A stretch of 33,231 bases of DNA from Chitinophagales bacterium (GCA_046598235.1 JBKJJB010000375.1:1-33231); one strand, 5' to 3'. Positions 12,053 to 20,969 are shown, counted from the first letter of the stretch. Notes: generated by a model from the letters alone, not told the origin. Made by a program: numbers and translations.

Positions 12053-12538
12053 ATGCTGAACATTCACCGCACCGAACCGTATCGCTTGTTTTTGATTGAA
12101 GATAGCCCTGCAGAAGTTCGTCTGATACAGGAGGCTGTAAAGGAAGCCGAACTCTCCGATATGATTGAATTTGAATACGCCTATGATGGAGAGGAAGCTT
12201 GTGAGTTGCTTGACACTGCAAAAATGATTGGAAAGAAGTATGACTTAGTGTTGTTGGATTTAAACTTGCCGAAAGTTACAGGAATTGAAGTATTAGAAAA
12301 AATAAAGACAGATCCTGATTTGGAAATGATTCCCGTTATAGTTGTAACAAACTCCGATTACAAGAAAGATATGATTGAATGCTACCGCATGAATGCTGAC
12401 GGCTATCTTCAAAAACCGGCTGACTTTAAAAAACTGGTAGATTTCTTTGTGTCTGTTAAGCGTTCTATTGAAGTAAGAAACAAACTTTCGATTTATTACA
12501 TCGAAAAAACTTACGATGAATTAGCGATGGCTAGTTGA
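12053..12538 (+). CDS. Single-domain response regulator receiver (CheY/Rcp1-like), orphan
   Basis: LFLIEDSPAEVRLIQEA, DLVLLDLNLPKVTGIEVL, IPVIVVTNS and DGYLQKP are the receiver acidic pocket, phospho-Asp, T/S and K positions. There is no output domain. Confidence 0.88.
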   Translation: MLNIHRTEPYRLFLIEDSPAEVRLIQEAVKEAELSDMIEFEYAYDGEEACELLDTAKMIGKKYDLVLLDLNLPKVTGIEVLEKIKTDPDLEMIPVIVVTNSDYKKDMIECYRMNADGYLQKPADFKKLVDFFVSVKRSIEVRNKLSIYYIEKTYDELAMAS

Positions 12539-13258
12539 TGCTTCGGCAAACAATAGGTTAATCACGTCTGTTCTAAAGTTTTCACTTCGCTTTACTTCCA
12601 CAAACTTTTTCTCTTCTGTCATCAGCCAGCATTTACTGCTATACTCTAATGATGCTTCAATATCATGGGTTGAAAGAATTACAATCTTCTTCATTTCTCT
12701 TGAAATGGCAGCAAGCAATTGAAGAATCTCCTTTTTGTTTCTGAAATCAAGAAAAGCTGTCGGTTCGTCTAAAATGATAACAGGTGTTTGCTGACATAAT
12801 GCACGGGCAATTAAAACCTTCTGTCTCTCTCCATCACTTATTTGATTAAAGAGCTTGTCCTGAAGTTTTTCCAGCTTCATAGCTGAAATCACCTTCTCCA
12901 ATTCTTTTAAATCCTCATATCTCATTTTACCAAACCAACTCGTATGTGGTGAGCGCCCCAATGCAATAACCTCTTTTACTGAAATATTATCGACAAAAAT
13001 TTTCTCTGTCAAAACAATGCTGATAAGCTTCGCTCTTTCCTGAACCGGTAAGTTTTCAAGCTGCTTCTCTCCTACATAAATGTTTCCGCTTACACTGTTT
13101 TGCAATCCAGAAATGGTTCTCAACAAAGTTGATTTACCAATTCCGTTTACACCGAGTAAGGCAACCATTTCGCCTTCGTTGGCAGAAAAAGAAATATCAC
13201 GAAAAACGATTTTATCGCTTCCGTAACCAATATTTAATTTCTCTGCCTGCAGTTTCAT
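12521..13258 (-). CDS. btuD: ABC transporter ATP-binding protein, iron-siderophore/cobalamin (FecE/BtuD-like) family
   Basis: Walker A GVNGIGKSTLL. Signature LSDGERQKV. Walker B VIILDEPTAFLD. It is the last gene of the riboswitch-led operon and directly abuts the permease gene (TAA then ATG). Confidence 0.85.
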   Translation of the reverse strand: MKLQAEKLNIGYGSDKIVFRDISFSANEGEMVALLGVNGIGKSTLLRTISGLQNSVSGNIYVGEKQLENLPVQERAKLISIVLTEKIFVDNISVKEVIALGRSPHTSWFGKMRYEDLKELEKVISAMKLEKLQDKLFNQISDGERQKVLIARALCQQTPVIILDEPTAFLDFRNKKEILQLLAAISREMKKIVILSTHDIEASLEYSSKCWLMTEEKKFVEVKRSENFRTDVINLLFAEASTSHR

Positions 13259-14275
13259 TTAGAATTTACGTTGACGAAGTATTATCCATATAACCACAGG
13301 TGCACCCAAAAGTGATGTAATAGCATTTATGGGCAAAATATTGTCAGAGCCTGGTGTAGATGCAATTACATTACACAGACCACAAATAACTGCTCCAATT
13401 ACCGCACAAGCAGGAATCAAAATTTTATGATCTGCTGTTTTAAATATAGCTCGTGAAAGATGCGGCACCGCCAATCCAACAAACCCAATTGGTCCGCAAA
13501 AAGCCGTTACACTTCCCGCTAAAATACTGGTGCATAAAACAATCAACACTTTTGCGTTGCGAATATTTAAGCCTGAACTTGCTGCATAGGTATCGCCCAG
13601 CAACAAAATGTTTAATGGTTTAGAAAGGAAAAAGGAAAATACAATTCCTATTAGCACCACCAGTGTGAGATAAAAGACCTGATTCAAATCAACATAACGG
13701 AAACTGCCGAAAGTCCAAAGCACATAATTCTTCAATGCTTCATTGCTGCTGAACGACTGCATAATTTCAATCATGGCACTAATTCCTCCACCAATCATTA
13801 AACCAATAATAAGAATAGCTACTACATCGTTCAAGCGATAAGAAACAAGAAAGTTGATAAAAAAAATAAGCACAGCACCGGCTGCTGCTGCAAGAATAAT
13901 ACTCCAACTACTCAACAAATGAATTTCGTGAATACCGAAAGCAGAAGCTGCTAAAATAAATATGGCTACACCCAAACTTGCACCGGCACTAATGCCTAGC
14001 ACATAAGGTCCTGCAATTGGGTTGCGAAACATGGTTTGCATTTGCAAACCACTTACTGATAAGCCTGCACCAGCAAGCAGAGCTGCAAGCGCAGCAGGCA
14101 AGCGCGATTCCAAAATAATGTTTCGCCATGCTTCATTGCCCATATTGTTTCCTGCCAGAATATTCAGCACTTCTGAACAAGAAATAGAAACAGAACCAAG
14201 AAGTAGTTGCAAGAAAAATACAACCACAGTCAGAATTGAGAAAGAAGAAAACAGTATAATATTTCTACTGCTCAT
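13259..14275 (-). CDS. btuC: FecCD-family ABC permease (BtuC-like)
   Basis: 338-aa polytopic hydrophobic protein with FecCD-like strings (RNPIAGPYVLGISAGASLG, LLGAPVVIWIIL). Its start overlaps the upstream stop as ATGA (14272-14275). Confidence 0.85.
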   Translation of the reverse strand: MSSRNIILFSSFSILTVVVFFLQLLLGSVSISCSEVLNILAGNNMGNEAWRNIILESRLPAALAALLAGAGLSVSGLQMQTMFRNPIAGPYVLGISAGASLGVAIFILAASAFGIHEIHLLSSWSIILAAAAGAVLIFFINFLVSYRLNDVVAILIIGLMIGGGISAMIEIMQSFSSNEALKNYVLWTFGSFRYVDLNQVFYLTLVVLIGIVFSFFLSKPLNILLLGDTYAASSGLNIRNAKVLIVLCTSILAGSVTAFCGPIGFVGLAVPHLSRAIFKTADHKILIPACAVIGAVICGLCNVIASTPGSDNILPINAITSLLGAPVVIWIILRQRKF

Positions 14276-15438
14276 TTTAGTTTTCGGTAGTAATACAGCT
14301 CATGATTAGGCAATAGTTCGGGATGGAAAATAAAAATCAAATCAGCCAACACCACATCGGGATTCAATGCACCGGTTTCCCAAAAATCAAAACCTCCGCT
14401 TGGTGTGTTACGTTTATCGTTATTGAAAATACTTGCAGTTTTGTAGGCATTAAAAAAAGTGTTCTTCTTATCTGCCGCTTTTATTTCGGTGAGCGAACGG
14501 GCAAAACCATTGCACAACCAAATATCAGCATCAGCCGCTTTGGCATATACGGCTTCATAATCTAAATTCAGATTTAAACCATTGGTCGCCTTTGCATCCT
14601 TCCACAAAAAATCGCCACCGGCATCGGCAATTAACTTTGCCATATAGTTTTCGCCACAGGGCATATACCATATCTCTTTAAAAGGAAGGTTGGAAAACAC
14701 CGTTGGCTTGCTTAAAACGCCTTTTAATTTATCCTTTAGCGACAAATAGTTTTTCTCTACATCCTGAAAAATGCTATCCGCTTCAAATTCCTTATCATAA
14801 AAAGCAGCAGTAAATTTTATCCATTCAGCACGCGCCAAAGGTTCTTGCTCCATATAGTCCAAGTTCAAAACTGACTTAATATGAAGCGAGTTCAACTTCT
14901 TTTTCATTTTATCGCCACCATCCCAATCGCCCGATGTAAAAACAAAAGATGGATTTAACTCCACCATCTTTTCATAATTCAATTCATTGCTTCCTACATT
15001 AGCAATTTGATTCTGTTTCACTTTAGCTACTACATCCGTATCATAAATCAAATCTACATTCGCTACTCCACAAATTGAATCAACCAAACCCAAACGAGTA
15101 AGAGTAGCAATGTGATTAGTAGAAATACAAATTATTTTCCTGATCGGTGTATCAAGCAAAAGCGCATCGACAAAATCAACCGGTGCAGGCTTACCTTTCT
15201 GTACTAAAATGTATTGCGCAAATACTTTTGAACTATCTCTCCAATCCTTTACAGTTATAACTTTAAAGCTGTTGTAGTAATCAACCGAAAACCCTTTGGC
15301 ATATTTTATCAGCAGCGAAGTATCTTTAATGCAATGAGTGGTGTGTTGCTCTTTAGTCTGGGTTTTGCTTCTGCATGACCATTGACCAATGACCAATGAC
15401 AATAAAAGGCAAACTACCGCCAAATGTTTCCTAATCAT
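14272..15438 (-). CDS. btuF: Periplasmic-binding-protein type 2 substrate-binding lipoprotein (BtuF-like)
   Basis: The internal ATG at 15438 gives a lipoprotein signal, MIRKHLAVVCLLLSLVIGQWSC. The body resembles Peripla_BP_2 (RKIICISTNHIATLTRLGL..., PSFVFTSGDW). The listed 15546 start would overlap the upstream gene by >100 nt. With 15438 the overlap is 8 nt. Confidence 0.8.
   Translation of the reverse strand: MIRKHLAVVCLLLSLVIGQWSCRSKTQTKEQHTTHCIKDTSLLIKYAKGFSVDYYNSFKVITVKDWRDSSKVFAQYILVQKGKPAPVDFVDALLLDTPIRKIICISTNHIATLTRLGLVDSICGVANVDLIYDTDVVAKVKQNQIANVGSNELNYEKMVELNPSFVFTSGDWDGGDKMKKKLNSLHIKSVLNLDYMEQEPLARAEWIKFTAAFYDKEFEADSIFQDVEKNYLSLKDKLKGVLSKPTVFSNLPFKEIWYMPCGENYMAKLIADAGGDFLWKDAKATNGLNLNLDYEAVYAKAADADIWLCNGFARSLTEIKAADKKNTFFNAYKTASIFNNDKRNTPSGGFDFWETGALNPDVVLADLIFIFHPELLPNHELYYYRKLK
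15375..15402. repeat. Imperfect heptanucleotide tandem array (4 units) inside the BtuF-like signal-peptide coding region
   Basis: Plus strand: ATGACCA TTGACCA ATGACCA ATGACAA. The coding strand reads TTGTCATTGGTCATTGGTCAATGGTCAT and encodes LSLVIGQWS. Confidence 0.85.
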
Positions 15439-16468
15439 GATTAAAAGCAAAGTTGCCAGAAATAATTCCGGCTGTGAAAGAATGAAGTAATATTCCGTTT
15501 TTGTTGTAACGGTAAATACGCGATTGCTGAACAAAGTCAAGTGCATCGCTTACATAAACATCACCGGTTATTTGATCAACACCTGTAGCATAAATACTTG
15601 ATGCAGTTGAGCGTATATAAGGCCAACCAGGAAATTGAAAATTATCTACACCATAAACGTCTTTTCCTAAAACATACCACACCATTCCGCGTGTTGCGTC
15701 TATTTGTAACCTAGAAGGATGGTCAACAATCTGGTTAAATGAATAATTGAAAAGCAGATTAAAATTTCTATCAAAAACTTTAATAGCAGCTGTGGTTGCG
15801 GAGGCACTATCTGAACTAGTTAAAATCCAAACATATTTGTTGGAATCAACTGCAATACCTTCTGCATCTCCGGCAAATTCTTTCTTATCAATATAGGTAT
15901 TATCGCTTATCCTGATTCTATACAAAGCACCCTTAGCAGAAGGATTTGAATAGATTTTCTTCCCTTCAACAAAAACATATTCACCTGCTTGAACTAAATG
16001 TTCTGTATACTGAGGTATAGAAATTTCAGTTTTCAAATTACCTGTTAAATAATTGACAACATAAATTTTGTTAGAATAAAGTTCAGTAACATAAGCAATA
16101 CTATCACTAACAGGGAGAATGTATCTTGGCGAAGAGCCGTTAATCGTTATCGTTCTTATCCTTTGAAACGATGGAAGTTTAACCACTTCTATTTTTGCAG
16201 AATTATTAATCACCACAAAAGCAATAGAATCCTTAATGAACATGCTTTGCGCTACATCGCCCAACGAATAACCATTTGCAGATTGAAACAAATTATTCGT
16301 TACTGCATTTGTATTCGGGTCATAAAAAGAAACTTCGCCATTGCCGAAATTGAAATTGCCTTCATTGATAATGTAGACACCTTTACCCGTAGGCAAATCG
16401 GGAGTTTTGTCTTTATGGCAAGAAGAAATGAAAGCGATAAGAATTAAGAGTAAGTAATTTCCTTTCAT
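15431..16468 (-). CDS. Surface lipoprotein, YncE/DUF5074-like beta-propeller (BtuG-like candidate by context)
   Basis: Lipoprotein signal MKGNYLLLILIAFISSC. GVYIINEGNFNFGNGEVSFYDPNTN and repeated blade-like segments (IYVVNYLTGNL, VWILTS, VWYVLG, VYVSDA). It sits directly downstream of the TonB-dependent receptor with a 1-nt overlap. Confidence 0.7.
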   Translation of the reverse strand: MKGNYLLLILIAFISSCHKDKTPDLPTGKGVYIINEGNFNFGNGEVSFYDPNTNAVTNNLFQSANGYSLGDVAQSMFIKDSIAFVVINNSAKIEVVKLPSFQRIRTITINGSSPRYILPVSDSIAYVTELYSNKIYVVNYLTGNLKTEISIPQYTEHLVQAGEYVFVEGKKIYSNPSAKGALYRIRISDNTYIDKKEFAGDAEGIAVDSNKYVWILTSSDSASATTAAIKVFDRNFNLLFNYSFNQIVDHPSRLQIDATRGMVWYVLGKDVYGVDNFQFPGWPYIRSTASSIYATGVDQITGDVYVSDALDFVQQSRIYRYNKNGILLHSFTAGIISGNFAFNHD

Positions 16469-18327
16469 CAGCTTAGTTTAAATCGAATTGTTCCTTCAAA
16501 ATTTCTTCCGGGCATTGGACGTTGCGCTACGTTCTGATACTGTTTATCCGTCAAATTATTTACACGAAACGACAACCCGATTTCATATTTATGGTTAATT
16601 ATAAAATCTTTCCCTGCTTCTAAATCTAACAGGTAATATCCTTTCAGATTTTGGGTATTATCGGTAGTAATAAAAACCGCATCGGTAAAAGTATTTATAG
16701 CATTCAAATAAAATCGTTTGTATTCAAAGTGAACGCTCGCGTTTGTCAAATGCAGCGGCACGTATATCAATTGCTTATTCTTGGATTGGTCGAAAGGCGA
16801 AAGTGCATCAAGATTGGTGGCTCGTGTGTAAGCATAGTTACAGGATAAACGGAAAATAAAATCGCGATTAGATGGAGTTTGAAATGAAGCATAAATTTCT
16901 GCTCCTCTCGTTAGCACACGTTTTACATTTTGCGGCTCCCAGTAAGTTCCATTATTAATCCACTGAATCCAATTAGTGATGTATTTGCAAAATCCTGTAG
17001 CTTTAAAAGTAAAGCGACTTTGATAATTGTAGCGCGCAGTTACCTCTCCATCCCAACTCTTCTCTGTTATTAAATCACGATTGCCGCCCGGCACCCAATA
17101 CAAATCGTTGAGTGTAGGAAATCTGAAATTGCGCGATGCACTAACTAAAAACATCAAGTAATGTTCTTGGTTGATAATTTTATAATACCGGAATGAAAGT
17201 GCCGGAGAAAAAGGCGAAAAGGTTTTATCGTAAATACTTTCACGCAACTTCAGTTGAACTAGAATTTCCTTTATTGGTTCATACTTTACGTCTGCTGAAA
17301 GTTTTCCAATATGTCTGCCTCTGATAATTTGATACGAAGGAACTATAGCTCTTTCAAAATCGTAACCTGCTCCAATATTTACCGAGAACTTATTAATGCT
17401 ATCGTAAGTAAGCGAAAAACTATTTCTGAACGCCTGCATAATAGATTTTTCGTTCAAATAAATTTCGGGATTCTTATAGTGAATTACATCCTGCAAAAAC
17501 GCAGAAGTAAATTCTGTCGTCAGCTTTCTAAAATTTCCCTTCCAAAAAAGCGAAGTGCGCATAGAGTAATCATCCTGCACTTCTTTGCTGTAAGGCTTGC
17601 TAATGATTGGTGGAATTTGTCGCTGCGCATCGCTTAACCAAAAATTAAAGTGTAGCGAATTATTTTGATTAACTCTCGCACTAAACTGTTGCATAAAATG
17701 TAACATCTGTACTTTAGCATTCGTCAATTTCTCTTTTGCGTTTCCTGGCTTGTAAGTGTTTACAAAAGAATAATCGTTATCGCTCTGCATATAGCTGATT
17801 CTTGTAGTCCCGAAAATTTTTCCATTTCCAAAACCGGCTTTACCAAAAGTGCGAAGTGTATTAAAACTTCCGTAAGTAATAAACGCTTCAAACATAAACA
17901 TCGAATCAACGGTTGTTCCATTATTGATATTCAGCGAGCCTCCGATATTACCTGATTGCGAAGTGCCATTTACCTGAACTTGATCGCTCATTCCCATATT
18001 AAACAACGAAGCATCTACCTGGCCAAGAGAAGGAGAATTCAATTTTACTCCATTCCATAAAATATCGGTTTGTGCTGCGCTTGTACCACGAAAAGCAATA
18101 GAAGCTAGTTGACCATTCCCGTAATTCTTGATATAGATACCCGTGTTTTCACGCAATGCATCATTCAGATTTTTTGATGGAGCAATGGAGTAAATAATCT
18201 TTGCCTTCAAAATAGTTGTAGAGGAAATTTTTTCTACTTGTGGTAAAGTATAAACGCTATCTATTTTTAGCTGTGCATTCGACAAGGCAAACAACAACAG
18301 CAACAGATATGTTAGCGCACATTTCAT
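16468..18327 (-). CDS. btuB: TonB-dependent outer-membrane receptor (BtuB-like by size and context)
   Basis: Signal peptide, then plug-domain strings NLNDALRENTGIYIKNYGNGQLASIAFRGTSAAQTDILWNGVKLNSP. Barrel with C-terminal ...PMPGRNFEGTIRFKLS. 619 aa. It is downstream of a cobalamin riboswitch. ATGA overlap with the upstream gene. Confidence 0.85.
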   Translation of the reverse strand: MKCALTYLLLLLFALSNAQLKIDSVYTLPQVEKISSTTILKAKIIYSIAPSKNLNDALRENTGIYIKNYGNGQLASIAFRGTSAAQTDILWNGVKLNSPSLGQVDASLFNMGMSDQVQVNGTSQSGNIGGSLNINNGTTVDSMFMFEAFITYGSFNTLRTFGKAGFGNGKIFGTTRISYMQSDNDYSFVNTYKPGNAKEKLTNAKVQMLHFMQQFSARVNQNNSLHFNFWLSDAQRQIPPIISKPYSKEVQDDYSMRTSLFWKGNFRKLTTEFTSAFLQDVIHYKNPEIYLNEKSIMQAFRNSFSLTYDSINKFSVNIGAGYDFERAIVPSYQIIRGRHIGKLSADVKYEPIKEILVQLKLRESIYDKTFSPFSPALSFRYYKIINQEHYLMFLVSASRNFRFPTLNDLYWVPGGNRDLITEKSWDGEVTARYNYQSRFTFKATGFCKYITNWIQWINNGTYWEPQNVKRVLTRGAEIYASFQTPSNRDFIFRLSCNYAYTRATNLDALSPFDQSKNKQLIYVPLHLTNASVHFEYKRFYLNAINTFTDAVFITTDNTQNLKGYYLLDLEAGKDFIINHKYEIGLSFRVNNLTDKQYQNVAQRPMPGRNFEGTIRFKLS

Positions 18328-19319
18328 TCAACAACTAACTTCGTTACGAGCGATTCTACTTTTAGAAAATAAATTCCTTTAGGGAAGTTGACAGTTGACA
18401 GTTGACAGTTGACAGTTGAAATCCCCATTTCATGTACCAATCTTCCACTAAAATCAAAAGCTTTCAGTCTGCTTCCAACCGACTCTTCATTAACAGCTAT
18501 CTGAACTTCGCTGCCAACTGACGGATTTGGGAAAGTTCGTAATTCGTAATTCGTAATTCGCAATTCCTCAACTGCTGTAGTACTAACCTGATTGATAACT
18601 CCCACTGCATCTAAATCGAAACCGCTTGAAGCAAATGCTGTTGGGTACGGGTCATTTATCTTTTGCCCAAATTGGTCATGTGTTGCATATTGATTACCGA
18701 TAGAACCAACTACATCTATTAAGCGCACATGCGTAATGTTGTTTACATCTATCCCTGCTTCATTTTTCAATTCTTCTAAATCGAAAGGAGTGCCGAAGCC
18801 GGAAACATATTTGCCTGCCAGATTATTTACCAGAGAGCAATCTACTCCTGTCATTGGAATCTGCATAGTATCCTGAATATTTGAAGTGGCAGGGAAACGG
18901 AAGAAATTGATTCCATCACTGCTTACTTCTACAAAAGCAAACTCAAGAAATGCTAAAGGGCTTTGTGTATAAAATCCGTTTTCGAAAACAGCAAAGTCGA
19001 AACCTAGTCCATTATAAATTGGATTTTGAAAAGCGAGTGTGGCAACACCGCTATCACCTAAACTAACTACTCCGTTTTGCCCTGCCATACCAATGGCAGA
19101 GTTTGCATTACCCACCGTTGTATACCCGGAATCAGGCACAGCAATATCCATATACCCGCGCTGAATTACACAACCGGTTGCCCAAGCCACAAAAGCAGAA
19201 CTATCTTTTTCCATGGCTGTTGTTCCCATCACATTTGCCGCAGGTGCAAATTGCGCGTCTGCTAAGTTTATTAGTTGTAGAGAAACCAGCAGTAGAAAAA
19301 TATTTTTCATGAAACTCAT
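18324..19319 (-). CDS. Secreted protein of unknown function with a T9SS type-A C-terminal sorting domain
   Basis: Signal peptide MSFMKNIFLLLVSLQLINLADAQ. Conserved-looking core DFAVFENGF...FLEFAFVEVSSDGINFFRFP...NLAGKY...GTPFDLEEL...VRLIDVVG. CTD TFPNPSVGSEVQIAV...FPKGIYFLKVESLVTKLVVE. It is the second gene of the riboswitch operon. Confidence 0.8.
   Translation of the reverse strand: MSFMKNIFLLLVSLQLINLADAQFAPAANVMGTTAMEKDSSAFVAWATGCVIQRGYMDIAVPDSGYTTVGNANSAIGMAGQNGVVSLGDSGVATLAFQNPIYNGLGFDFAVFENGFYTQSPLAFLEFAFVEVSSDGINFFRFPATSNIQDTMQIPMTGVDCSLVNNLAGKYVSGFGTPFDLEELKNEAGIDVNNITHVRLIDVVGSIGNQYATHDQFGQKINDPYPTAFASSGFDLDAVGVINQVSTTAVEELRITNYELRTFPNPSVGSEVQIAVNEESVGSRLKAFDFSGRLVHEMGISTVNCQLSTVNFPKGIYFLKVESLVTKLVVE
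18387..18419. repeat. Perfect heptanucleotide tandem array, GTTGACA x4.7, inside a T9SS CTD coding region
   Basis: GTTGACA GTTGACA GTTGACA GTTGACA GTTGA. The coding strand translates to STVNCQLSTVN, immediately before FPKGIYFLKV. Confidence 0.95.
18536..18566. repeat. Heptanucleotide tandem array, TTCGTAA x3 plus TTCGCAA plus TTC, at the start of the same T9SS CTD
   Basis: TTCGTAA TTCGTAA TTCGTAA TTCGCAA TTC. The coding strand translates to (E)LRITNYELR, immediately before TFPNPS. Confidence 0.95.
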
Positions 19320-19327
19320 TTTAATAA

Positions 19328-19360
19328 AGTGATGCCATCGTTTTAAACGATGGCATCACT
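19328..19360 (-). terminator. Perfect 33-nt palindrome/hairpin in the 51-bp gap between operon genes 1 and 2 (partial terminator or RNA processing/stability element)
   Basis: AGTGATGCCATCGTTT-T-AAACGATGGCATCACT. On the minus strand it is followed by TTTATTAAAATG. Confidence 0.5.
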
Positions 19361-19370
19361 GGTTCTCAAA

Positions 19371-20621
19371 TTATTGTTTCACAATTTTCTTTACCAAAGT
19401 TCCGTTCAGCGAACTCATTTTCACAAAGTAAATTCCTAATGAAAGTTCTTCCGTATTTAACTCAAGTGTATTGCTTTCAATAGCAGAAATTGTCTTCACT
19501 AAAATTCCTGTAACATCAAACAAATCAACTTGATTGATTACAGCCGATGAACGAATAGATATGTTATTGCTAAACGGATTTGGAAAAACCTTTACAGCAA
19601 CATCTGCAATTTCATCAAGCCCTGTAACGCCTGTTACATTTATATAAACAACTGCGGTATCGCTTGCGCCTAAGGCATCGTAAACACGATACACTAAAGA
19701 ATCTGTAGCAACAAGTCCAATAGCTGGCGTGTAATGAATTTCATTATTCTCAACCGTAGCCATAGCACCCGGAATAAGTGGTGCACTCAATAATTCAACA
19801 GTATAAGGATTGGCAATTAAACCGGCATCGTTGGCAAGCACGGCAATCACCGTGTCGTTTAAGTAGGTAGTAGTTACAGCATCATCGTTAGCTGTTGGTT
19901 GCGCATAAGCAGTATCGCCTGTAGTGAAATTGTCCATCGCGAAATAAGCCGGTGTATTCATGTAACCGAAAGCAGTGTCAGATGAAGTAAGTTGAAAAAT
20001 AATGCTATCCACATCACCCAGAGGCTGCAAATCAAACCAAGTCCAGTCGCTAAGCATATAATCCTGTGTACTATCAGCCGAACGAAAATCTGCAAGGAAA
20101 AAGTCTACTGCCTGTTGTTTCATTGCTCCGTTGAGCCATCCCATAGCACGCAAACGAAACCAATCCGGATCGGCACTGGTAGCGCCTCCAAATTTCTTAG
20201 CAAATTGATCTCCGTTTTTCATGCTCAGATATGCATAGGTGGTATTGGTTACATAAAAGCCTTTTACCAATTTACCCGATGCATTACCAGTTAATCGAAT
20301 TTTCGCATTGCCGTATTCATCGGCAACAGCGTACTGTTCTGAACCGTTATAGCCGCTTGCAGTGATAGCTGCGTATTGATTACCGAAACCAGCGGTCGTG
20401 CTATCCTTCTTATTCGAGTATGTAAAACCACTCCACGAAGCCCACGCGGTGTTGTAATCGTTTACAAAATTGGCATTGCCACTATTGAAGCCACCACTTA
20501 AATCGCTGCCATTCCAAAAGGTGTCGGTAGCAAGAGGAAGGTCTTCGAATGTAGAAACTGTTTGAGAGAAAAGAAAACTTGCCATAAGTGTGGCACACAT
20601 GAATAGGTTGAATTTTTTCAT
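19371..20621 (-). CDS. DUF4465-like secreted protein with a cadherin/Ig-like segment and a T9SS type-A CTD (BtuH-like candidate by context)
   Basis: Signal MKKFNLFMCATLMASFLFSQ. STFEDLPLATDTFWNGSDLSGGFNSGNANFVNDYNTAWASWSGFTYSNKKD...NQYAAI...GFYVTNTTYAYLSMKNGDQFAKKFGG...DWFRL matches my recollection of DUF4465. PTANDDAVTT...VLANDAG is a cadherin-like string. CTD VFPNPFSNNISI...LGIYFVKM...KKIVKQ. It is the first gene after the riboswitch. Confidence 0.8.
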   Translation of the reverse strand: MKKFNLFMCATLMASFLFSQTVSTFEDLPLATDTFWNGSDLSGGFNSGNANFVNDYNTAWASWSGFTYSNKKDSTTAGFGNQYAAITASGYNGSEQYAVADEYGNAKIRLTGNASGKLVKGFYVTNTTYAYLSMKNGDQFAKKFGGATSADPDWFRLRAMGWLNGAMKQQAVDFFLADFRSADSTQDYMLSDWTWFDLQPLGDVDSIIFQLTSSDTAFGYMNTPAYFAMDNFTTGDTAYAQPTANDDAVTTTYLNDTVIAVLANDAGLIANPYTVELLSAPLIPGAMATVENNEIHYTPAIGLVATDSLVYRVYDALGASDTAVVYINVTGVTGLDEIADVAVKVFPNPFSNNISIRSSAVINQVDLFDVTGILVKTISAIESNTLELNTEELSLGIYFVKMSSLNGTLVKKIVKQ

Positions 20622-20699: not shown

Positions 20700-20885
20700 G
20701 TTCTCCGCCTTTCTTCCCGAAAGCTTTTGACTAATGTGCCGAAGGCAGGTCTTCTGGTTTACTCTGTTTCTATCGCCTTCCCGGTTTTTACACCAGTGGC
20801 TTTGTGAGATAGAAACTTTTAAAGAGCTTACAGCAGCGGGTACTACTCAGGATTTTCACCTGATTCCCTATTGGACTATTCATTG
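20700..20885 (-). promoter_or_regulatory. Cobalamin (B12) riboswitch
   Basis: The minus strand reads, in order: AATAGGGAATCAGGTGAAAATCCTGAGTAGTACCCGCTGCTGTAAGC ... AGCCACTGGTGTAAAAACCGGGAAGGCG ... AAACCAGAAGACCTGCC (B12 box, plus-strand 20744-20757). These are the conserved cores of the cobalamin aptamer, upstream of a TonB-receptor/BtuFCD operon. The ends are approximate. Confidence 0.9.
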
Positions 20886-20969
20886 TAACATGAAATTGTC
20901 ACCTTTAGCGTTGCAAATAGAATCATTTATTTTGTAATTACTAAAAATATTTTTTGAACCTTGCGTTTG

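Follow-up and report, generated by a model that had tools for sequence, protein, structure and literature searches.

A compact, distant relative of the BtuH vitamin B12-binding domain with a type IX sorting signal, encoded in a riboswitch-headed corrinoid uptake operon of a Chitinophagales bacterium

The locus and the target protein

We analysed a 33,231-nucleotide stretch of DNA from a Chitinophagales bacterium (GCA_046598235.1 JBKJJB010000375.1:1-33231; referred to below as the window, with positions counted from its first letter), and in particular a minus-strand gene encoding a 331-amino-acid (aa) protein, here called the target. The gene belongs to an operon which comprises, in minus-strand order, a cobalamin riboswitch, a DUF4465 (BtuJ-type) gene, the target gene, and genes for BtuB, BtuG, BtuF, BtuC and BtuD (Table 1). 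A first-pass annotation, made from the sequence of the window alone, had seen in the target a candidate new accessory component of a riboswitch-gated corrinoid uptake operon, with a core that could not be placed in any named family. The riboswitch does lie upstream on the same strand. The core proved to be a remote homolog of BtuH's B12-binding domain, as indicated by profile searches, hhalign and Foldseek. The same annotation had called the upstream neighbour BtuH-like; Pfam and PDB matches assign this neighbour to the BtuJ type (DUF4465), and on this reading the BtuH-like gene of the operon is the target itself.

Table 1. Features of the target gene and of the surrounding operon (positions in the window)
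Feature	Position	Strand	Evidence or remarks
Cobalamin riboswitch aptamer heading the operon	20727..20921	-	RF00174, 91.6 bits, E 1e-21
BtuJ-type protein: DUF4465, Big_9 Ig domain and type IX C-terminal sorting domain	19371..20621	-	PF14717 E 2e-52, PF17963, PF18962
Hairpin (15-bp perfect stem) followed by UUUAUU	19328..19360	-	between the BtuJ-type gene and the target gene
Target open reading frame (331 aa)	18324..19319	-	ATG at 19319, stop codon 18324-18326
Target signal peptide, residues 1-22	19254..19319	-	read from the sequence; predicted cleavage between ADA and Q; Q23 and F24 invariant (40 homologs)
Target core, residues 23-247: compact BtuH-like domain, putative corrinoid-binding module	18579..19253	-	A4 profile, hhalign, Foldseek
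Tandem array, 7-nt period	18536..18566		4.4 copies, 95% matches; encodes LRITNYELR
Target type IX type A C-terminal sorting domain, residues 263-331	18327..18533	-	PF18962, TIGR04183, 8GLK_D
Tandem array, 7-nt period	18386..18419		4.9 copies, 100% matches; encodes STVNCQLSTVN
BtuB-type TonB-dependent receptor	16468..18327	-	Plug domain; partial TIGR01779 match; PDB BtuB matches
BtuG-type seven-bladed propeller lipoprotein (DUF5074)	15431..16468	-	PF16819; lipobox ISSC
BtuF-type periplasmic binding protein	14272..15438	-	PF01497 E 3e-17; translation
BtuC-type permease (FecCD)	13259..14275	-	PF01032 E 2e-77
BtuD-type ABC ATPase	12521..13258	-	PF00005 E 4e-30

The basic description of the gene given by the annotation was confirmed in the sequence and in profile matches. 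All six of the strings it had quoted (DFAVFENGF, FLEFAFVEVSSDGINFFRFP, NLAGKY, GTPFDLEEL, VRLIDVVG and SSGFDLDAVGV) occur in the translation, and the proposed translational coupling is evident, as the stop codon of the target gene and the start codon of the BtuB gene share a 4-nt ATGA (...GTT GAA TGA / ATG AAA TGT). The protein is composed of a signal peptide, a core of ~225 aa and a C-terminal sorting domain (CTD) of the type IX secretion system (T9SS), type A. Its N-terminus (MSFMKNIFLLLVSLQLINLADA followed by QFAPAA) resembles a signal-peptidase-I signal with an A-x-A site. This signal (ending in NLADA before QF) contains no Cys, and so lacks the lipobox of a surface lipoprotein; the protein carries the T9SS type A CTD instead. 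The CTD was recognized by the Por_Secre_tail family PF18962 (residues 263-325, E 3.7e-8, 34 bits against a cut-off of 27) and by TIGR04183 (E 9.5e-8, 31.9 bits against a cut-off of 23), and also matched the CTD of a solved T9SS substrate, 8GLK_D, in a phmmer search of the PDB. The T9SS machinery is represented in the genome by two GldM homologs (E 1e-40 to 1e-45), and the target therefore has the CTD, the N-terminal Sec signal and the genomic background of T9SS type A cargo.

The linker/CTD coding part of the gene contains two tandem arrays with a period of 7 nt. Since this period is not a multiple of three, the arrays could remove the CTD by frameshift switching. The string RITNYELR is retained at the protein level in an ortholog with 78% identity.

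Homologs of the target are numerous. In a set of 5.8 billion proteins, 7998 of 8000 scored candidates matched at E<=0.001, some of them possibly through the shared CTD only. The best homologs are 50-82% identical over the full length, and where the close orthologs carry any annotation, it goes no further than "T9SS type A sorting domain-containing protein".

Homology of the core to the BtuH domain

The core is not recognized by standard family models. Pfam scans of the target and of a profile of its close orthologs revealed no family matching the core, the target gave no match to PF14717 (DUF4465) in the Pfam scan, and a single-sequence phmmer search of the PDB returned matches to the CTD only and none to the core. 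A profile of close orthologs alone (A2) likewise found nothing in the PDB or Pfam. The link to BtuH reached significance only once remote homologs of the type found in Chlorobia and Kapabacteria had been added: with the resulting profile (A4, combining close and remote cores), an hmmsearch of the PDB yielded a single match for the core, to residues 429-498 of 8BLW_B (E 3.8e-6; E 8.7e-3 and 2.9e-5 with earlier profiles). This chain is BtuG1 (BT1490) of Bacteroides thetaiotaomicron, whose C-terminal B12-binding domain of ~270 aa is common to BtuH1 and BtuH2 (PMC8941943, PMC13616437).

Profile-profile comparison led to the same assignment. Against a profile of nine canonical BtuH/BtuGH domains from genomes of the target's class, A4 reached a probability of 97.7% in local (E 1.7e-12) and 98.7% in global hhalign mode, in contrast to the controls BtuJ (0.8%), BtuG (3.0%) and BtuB (0.4%); a relationship of the target to BtuJ, BtuG or BtuB was ruled out on these values. 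The remote subfamily of Chlorobia and Kapabacteria scored 97.8% against BtuH and 99.6% against the close family, and thus appears to bridge the two. When the family profile was aligned with single BtuH sequences, the match was confined to a block of ~55 aa (86-96%), and the longer alignment required a profile of the BtuH family. The structural search proposed by the annotation, performed with a model of the core, also placed 8BLW_B at the top. A search with the full-length model was uninformative, as its matches were mostly beta-sandwich proteins of two domains (beta-glucuronidases, galactose oxidase) and CTDs. We regard the homology of the target, as a shortened and distant relative, to BtuH as well supported by these comparisons. 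The original definition of the BtuH family rested on BLAST among gut species (PMC8941943), which is why it would miss the compact subfamily.

The core and the BtuH domain have four blocks in common: SLG(D/G)GG, DFx(V/I)x(E/G)NxF, E(P/x)(G/A)xVxVSxD, and FD(L/I)...(L/V)xx(V/I)x(F/Y/H)V(K/R)(I/V). Residues invariant across the close and remote subfamilies include D108, F109, F112, E113, N114, E126, S133, F142, P143, G176, F179, D202, F234 and D235; D180 is nearly invariant, and the conservation of F116 reaches at least 90%. Three of these positions align with ligand- or metal-site residues of BtuH2, which were located via L054, a close ortholog of BT1956 (numbering offset 1-6 residues). In BtuH2, the phosphate of the nucleotide loop is contacted by Asn399, which is also counted as a Ca/Na-site residue; Phe401 contacts 5,6-dimethylbenzimidazole and packs on the lower ligand, and Glu406 serves as a Ca/Na-site ligand bridging to the phosphate (PMC8941943, PMC13616437). 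In the ortholog they form part of the block GNAFDSSNEPG, which is aligned with DFAVFENGF...LEF of the target, so that they correspond to N114, F116 and E126. The C-terminal BtuH strand GE-STEV, which carries the metal ligands Ser582 and Glu584, lies opposite the invariant GFDLDAV strand of the target (F234, D235, D237) in a low-confidence part of the global hhalign alignment where the register is ambiguous, and this equivalence is no more than suggestive. For the BtuH2 metal ligand Asp522, no target equivalent could be placed.

A further relationship was found with NF033170, the LIC_13355 family of Leptospira lipoproteins, which was matched by 17 of 18 superfamily cores (best E 2e-13). Residues 101-143 of the target (the FEN...VEVSSDG block) align to this model with 17.3 bits against a cut-off of 120; judging from these profile scores, the LIC_13355 family is related to the superfamily of the target, and the target is not a member of it. 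Apart from this sub-threshold match, the NCBIfam models recognized nothing in the core of the target. LIC_13355 is a spirochaete lipoprotein with no recognised domain, described only as a laminin- and plasminogen-binding adhesin (PMC11891782), and no link to B12 has been reported for it.

Genomic context, distribution and fusions

When 401 whole genomes of the phylum were searched, the domain turned up in 50: twelve with close orthologs, about 35 with remote homologs (E 1e-8 to 1e-17; those sampled came from Chloroherpetonaceae and Kapabacteria) and three with very weak matches in open reading frames (ORFs) whose length is about 630-1300 aa. Two of the latter lie in canonical Bacteroidales-type loci. 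One (L052) has the order riboswitch, BtuJ, a BtuH2-like ORF of 633 aa and a BtuL-like gene; the 633-aa ORF, which measures about 591 aa from its likely lipoprotein start, is built from Ig-like repeats with a BtuH domain at its C-terminus. The other has the order riboswitch, BtuB, a BtuGH-like fusion of propeller and BtuH domain, BtuJ and BtuF. The target profile thus recovers bona fide BtuH2-like and BtuGH-like genes.

Context was examined in 20 loci of this sample (19 kb each). A cobalamin riboswitch (RF00174) was present in 16 of them, including eight of the nine with remote homologs, and was always located upstream on the strand of the gene; BtuB and/or BtuG adjoin the gene in 15. Beyond this sample, a pattern-confirmed search of GTDB representatives matched at least 531 species. 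Among 80 loci of named species taken from these representatives, with riboswitches identified by nhmmer, an upstream riboswitch on the same strand was detected in 62 (in 48 of 56 if only loci flanked by at least 4 kb on either side are counted), and 52 have a same-strand BtuJ gene upstream. The order BtuJ-target is that of btuJ2-btuH2 in operon 2 of B. thetaiotaomicron, and also that of L052. In about 10 of the 80 loci the riboswitch is followed by the compact gene alone. For a random gene, we estimate such proximity to a riboswitch at roughly 1%, given one or a few riboswitches per genome of 3-5 Mb. The taxa represented include Taibaiella, Flavipsychrobacter, Sediminibacterium, Flavobacteriales, Sphingobacteriales, Cytophagales and Saprospiraceae, as well as Bacteroidales from the rumen and the horse gut. 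The membership of the gene in a corrinoid uptake system, claimed by the annotation for the window, therefore holds for most of the species examined, and homologs of the target are found mainly within B12 contexts.

An exhaustive hidden Markov model search of 1.84 billion cluster representatives (clusters at 50% identity) retrieved 4,711 clusters with an E-value of 1e-3 or lower, of which 1,286 reached 1e-30 or lower. Among the best 150 of the 4,711 representatives, the target domain is fused to BtuJ in both orders: BtuJ-target in eight proteins (P0141, P0167, P0177, P0212, P0223, P0245, P0262, P0268) and target-BtuJ in three (P0197, P0209, P0253). The same set contains five tandem duplications of the domain (P0132, P0133, P0154, P0232, P0063), a PKD-target-BtuG propeller fusion (P0241), and a protein whose target domain is preceded by a weak match to DUF4430 (P0134). 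These fusions parallel the canonical BtuGH fusion.

Two other arrangements were noted among the loci. L046 (8905-13661), from a genome that belongs to a different class within the phylum, has two cobalamin riboswitches arranged in tandem on one strand: the first controls a BtuH-like gene alone, and the second, located right after the stop codon of this gene, controls btuB-btuG. In L066 and L056, canonical full-size BtuH domains are followed by C-terminal tails similar to T9SS CTDs (...SYPNPCTDYLYL...GIYILKAGNTIQKIIKN in L066); because of this resemblance, T9SS delivery may extend beyond the compact variant.

The surrounding operon

The genes flanking the target gene are readily assigned. The BtuJ-type protein matches the DUF4465 B12-binders of the PDB (9QPM, 9FCT and 9HMU; E 1e-23 to 1e-26) and, with E 4e-6, BtuJ2 (9I2L); in current nomenclature DUF4465 proteins are designated BtuJ and not BtuH (PMC13616437). 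The best PDB matches of the receptor are the BtuB chains of Bacteroides (8BMX_C, 8P97_A and 8P98_A; E about 1e-50), and those of the BtuG-type protein are BtuG chains (8P97_B, 8OKV_B and 8BMX_D; E 1e-46 to 1e-51). The BtuF-type ORF probably starts at Met37 (nt 15438; window 15438-15546) and not at the listed ORF start. The Met37 start provides a signal peptide that ends in a lipobox-like Cys (MIRKHLAVVCLLLSLVIGQWSC; ...LSLVIGQWSC), and reduces the overlap with the BtuG-type gene to 8 nt, compared with 116 nt as listed.

The only real intergenic gap of the operon, between the BtuJ-type gene and the target gene, is occupied by a hairpin with a minimum free energy of -24.4 kcal/mol (z = -8.2 relative to shuffled sequences). 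It could act as a partial terminator or as a 3'-stabiliser that raises the dosage of the BtuJ-type gene, the first of the operon; it escaped a simple scan for terminators.

The riboswitch of this operon is the single RF00174 match in the whole 2.96-Mb assembly. The genome encodes three to four proteins with B12-binding domains, and B12-dependent enzymes are present; CbiC, a marker of corrin-ring synthesis, was not found in the assembly (a metagenome-assembled genome, estimated to be 91% complete). The source organism is probably auxotrophic for cobamides and has a single locus for their uptake. Considering the sole riboswitch, the B12-dependent enzymes and the missing synthesis marker, the operon is probably its only route of B12 supply.

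Discussion

We consider it probable that the target is a compact, divergent member of the BtuH superfamily which is displayed on the cell surface via the T9SS and acts as a corrinoid-binding intermediate in an extracellular relay. In the proposed mechanism, a low intracellular concentration of cobamide would relieve the riboswitch and lead to expression of the whole operon; because its gene lies behind the cobalamin riboswitch, the target would be produced only under such conditions. The protein would be exported by Sec, with cleavage after ADA leaving an N-terminal Gln, carried over the outer membrane by the T9SS by means of its type A CTD and, if it behaves like other cargo of this type, anchored at the cell surface. 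The beta-sandwich core of ~225 aa most likely binds corrinoids. The predicted pocket would be Ca-assisted and centred on the phosphate of the nucleotide loop, using the invariant DFxVFENxF...E block. It is plausible that binding has been retained, given that the target preserves what is most conserved in the BtuH pocket. The BtuJ-type (DUF4465) protein would capture the corrinoid and the target would pass it on to BtuG-BtuB for uptake, with BtuFCD completing the import; this order is suggested by the gene order, the fusions and the relay model of B. thetaiotaomicron (PMC13616437). The annotation had already envisaged a ligand-binding or hand-off protein and a partnership with the DUF4465 protein. 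Both ideas fit the conserved BtuJ-target pair and the fusions, and binding itself is a prediction from homology.

Several observations weigh against this reading. The confident part of the alignment with BtuH spans ~56-93 columns (the SLGxGG...DFxxxxNxF...E..V.VS.D block), the remainder being of low confidence. The Foldseek match to 8BLW_B has an E of 2e-3 and a TM score of 0.39, and was obtained with the model of the core, whose quality is moderate (pLDDT 71, compared with 85 for the full-length model). BtuH2 itself (7BIZ) is absent from both the sequence and the Foldseek matches, which contain the BtuG1 domain only. The target is ~70-80 residues shorter than the BtuH domain and lacks its insertion of ~80 residues after the VSxD strand, and the corrin contacts His476, Tyr510, Trp511 and Trp577 of BtuH2 have no recognisable equivalents; the corrin contacts, including Gln333, are situated in or beside segments that are missing from the target or aligned at low confidence. 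The genomic association also has exceptions. Three of the 20 loci of the phylum sample (L031, L034, L039) contain neither a riboswitch nor a B12 neighbour, the adjacent genes encoding a peroxiredoxin, MetRS together with a WD40 protein, and MatE with DUF1697, and these cases indicate that target-type genes are not always clustered with B12 genes. About 11 of the 80 GTDB loci likewise have no B12 neighbour, although several of these lie at contig ends. Finally, BtuK2 and BtuL, two proteins encoded by Btu operons of B. thetaiotaomicron, do not bind cobamides, and for this reason membership in such an operon is no proof of binding.

The missing corrin contacts, and the missing insertion that bears some of them, would fit a BtuH-derived accessory protein that has ceased to bind corrinoids. 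Such a protein might be a scaffold or a docking partner at the surface, tethering, for instance, the T9SS-anchored BtuJ-type protein near BtuG-BtuB, or might act in some other non-binding capacity. The tight pairing with BtuJ and the fusions would suit a partner protein equally well, and BtuK2 and BtuL set a precedent. We nevertheless regard such a role as unlikely: it is hard to reconcile with the invariance, across classes, of N114, E126 and the acidic cluster, whose counterparts in BtuH face the phosphate and the metal site, and in about 10 species the riboswitch controls the compact gene alone, with no partner gene beside it. The many invariant acidic residues (D108, E113, E126, D202, D235, and almost D180), together with the strict riboswitch and BtuB context, could also be taken to indicate a surface enzyme or release factor, with a metal-dependent Asp/Glu active site, that strips B12 from foreign binding proteins or remodels the nucleotide loop. 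However, searches of Pfam, NCBIfam and the PDB revealed no resemblance to hydrolase families, the only homolog of known function, the BtuH domain, is a binder, and the equivalent residues there hold Ca/Na and the phosphate, which makes an enzymatic role quite improbable. A generic beta-sandwich adhesin or lectin (CBM32/discoidin-like or of the LIC_13355 type) residing in the operon by chance was rejected on genomic context and is hardly credible: the Foldseek matches to CBM32/discoidin proteins (E 1e-2 to 1e-1, TM 0.3-0.42, on the model with pLDDT 71) reflect resemblance at the fold level only, with no CBM family matching the core in sequence-profile searches, and these matches and the laminin- and plasminogen-binding reported for the related LIC_13355 (PMC11891782) stand against a riboswitch association that holds across the classes of the phylum, far above random expectation, against the fusions with BtuJ and BtuG, and against hhalign scores that are specific to BtuH and low in the controls.

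Read as a BtuH-type module, the target can be compared with several known groups of proteins. With the BtuH family (BtuH2, BT1956/7BIZ; BtuH1, BT1488; BtuG1/BtuGH, BT1490/8BLW_B) it has in common a homologous core with the blocks described above, location in cobalamin-riboswitch operons beside btuJ and btuB/btuG, fusions with BtuG propellers and an expected extracellular position. It differs in that identity falls below about 20% outside one block of ~60 aa, in the FEN motif (xGN in BtuH), and in its route to the surface: the target has a signal-peptidase-I signal and a T9SS type A CTD, with no PKD stalk, whereas BtuH has a lipoprotein anchor. Its distribution is also different, comprising mainly environmental Chitinophagales, Flavobacteriales, Sphingobacteriales, Cytophagales and Saprospiraceae, some Bacteroidales of the rumen and gut, and Chlorobia and Kapabacteria. 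The BtuJ/DUF4465 proteins (BT1491, BT1957; 9I2L) resemble the target as surface beta-sandwich accessories of the same operons that are often fused to its domain, and the BtuJ-type protein of the window is T9SS cargo too; BtuJ binds B12, but it is not a homolog of the target at the profile level. Typical T9SS type A cargo (e.g. gingipain and NucA CTDs) resembles the target in its CTD of ~70 aa and in a Sec signal followed by Gln; the passenger of the target would serve B12 uptake, in contrast to the proteases, glycosidases and adhesins carried by other members of this group.

A bolder reading, which we hold only tentatively, is that the FEN-type compact domain represents a separate, large and unnamed class of extracellular corrinoid-handling modules, distributed in Bacteroidia, Chlorobia and Kapabacteria and linked to LIC_13355. 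Such modules might grip the nucleotide-loop/phosphate end of the ligand via a Ca2+ site, have DUF4465 (BtuJ) as an obligate partner, and be delivered by the T9SS and not as lipoproteins.

Nearly all that has been established on extracellular B12 capture by Bacteroidota comes from gut Bacteroides, whose accessory binders BtuG, BtuH, BtuJ and BtuK are known only as lipoproteins. We found no paper that mentions BtuH together with the T9SS, and, judging by titles and abstracts, none of the eight papers listed, out of nine matching, on type IX secretion, cobalamin and BtuB deals with B12-uptake accessory proteins. What is new is thus the compact form of the BtuH-like module, its delivery by the T9SS and its wide occurrence among environmental Bacteroidota; the BtuH-type B12-binding part as such is known. 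Our results extend a known component of B12 scavenging to many environmental bacteria and do not add a categorically new one.

The presence, outside the gut, of shortened BtuH-type and BtuJ-type modules exported by the T9SS would tie this secretion system to the acquisition of vitamins. A candidate function can be offered for thousands of proteins whose sole annotation is "T9SS type A sorting domain-containing protein", and the conserved minimal BtuH core (the N114/F116/E126 block) should be useful in defining the requirements of corrinoid binding. The relationship described here also provides a testable lead for the LIC_13355 family of Leptospira. If the compact domain is indeed a separate class of corrinoid modules, LIC_13355 would need to be re-read as a B12 protein, and the scavenging of B12 by Bacteroidota of soil, freshwater and the rumen would depend on the T9SS.

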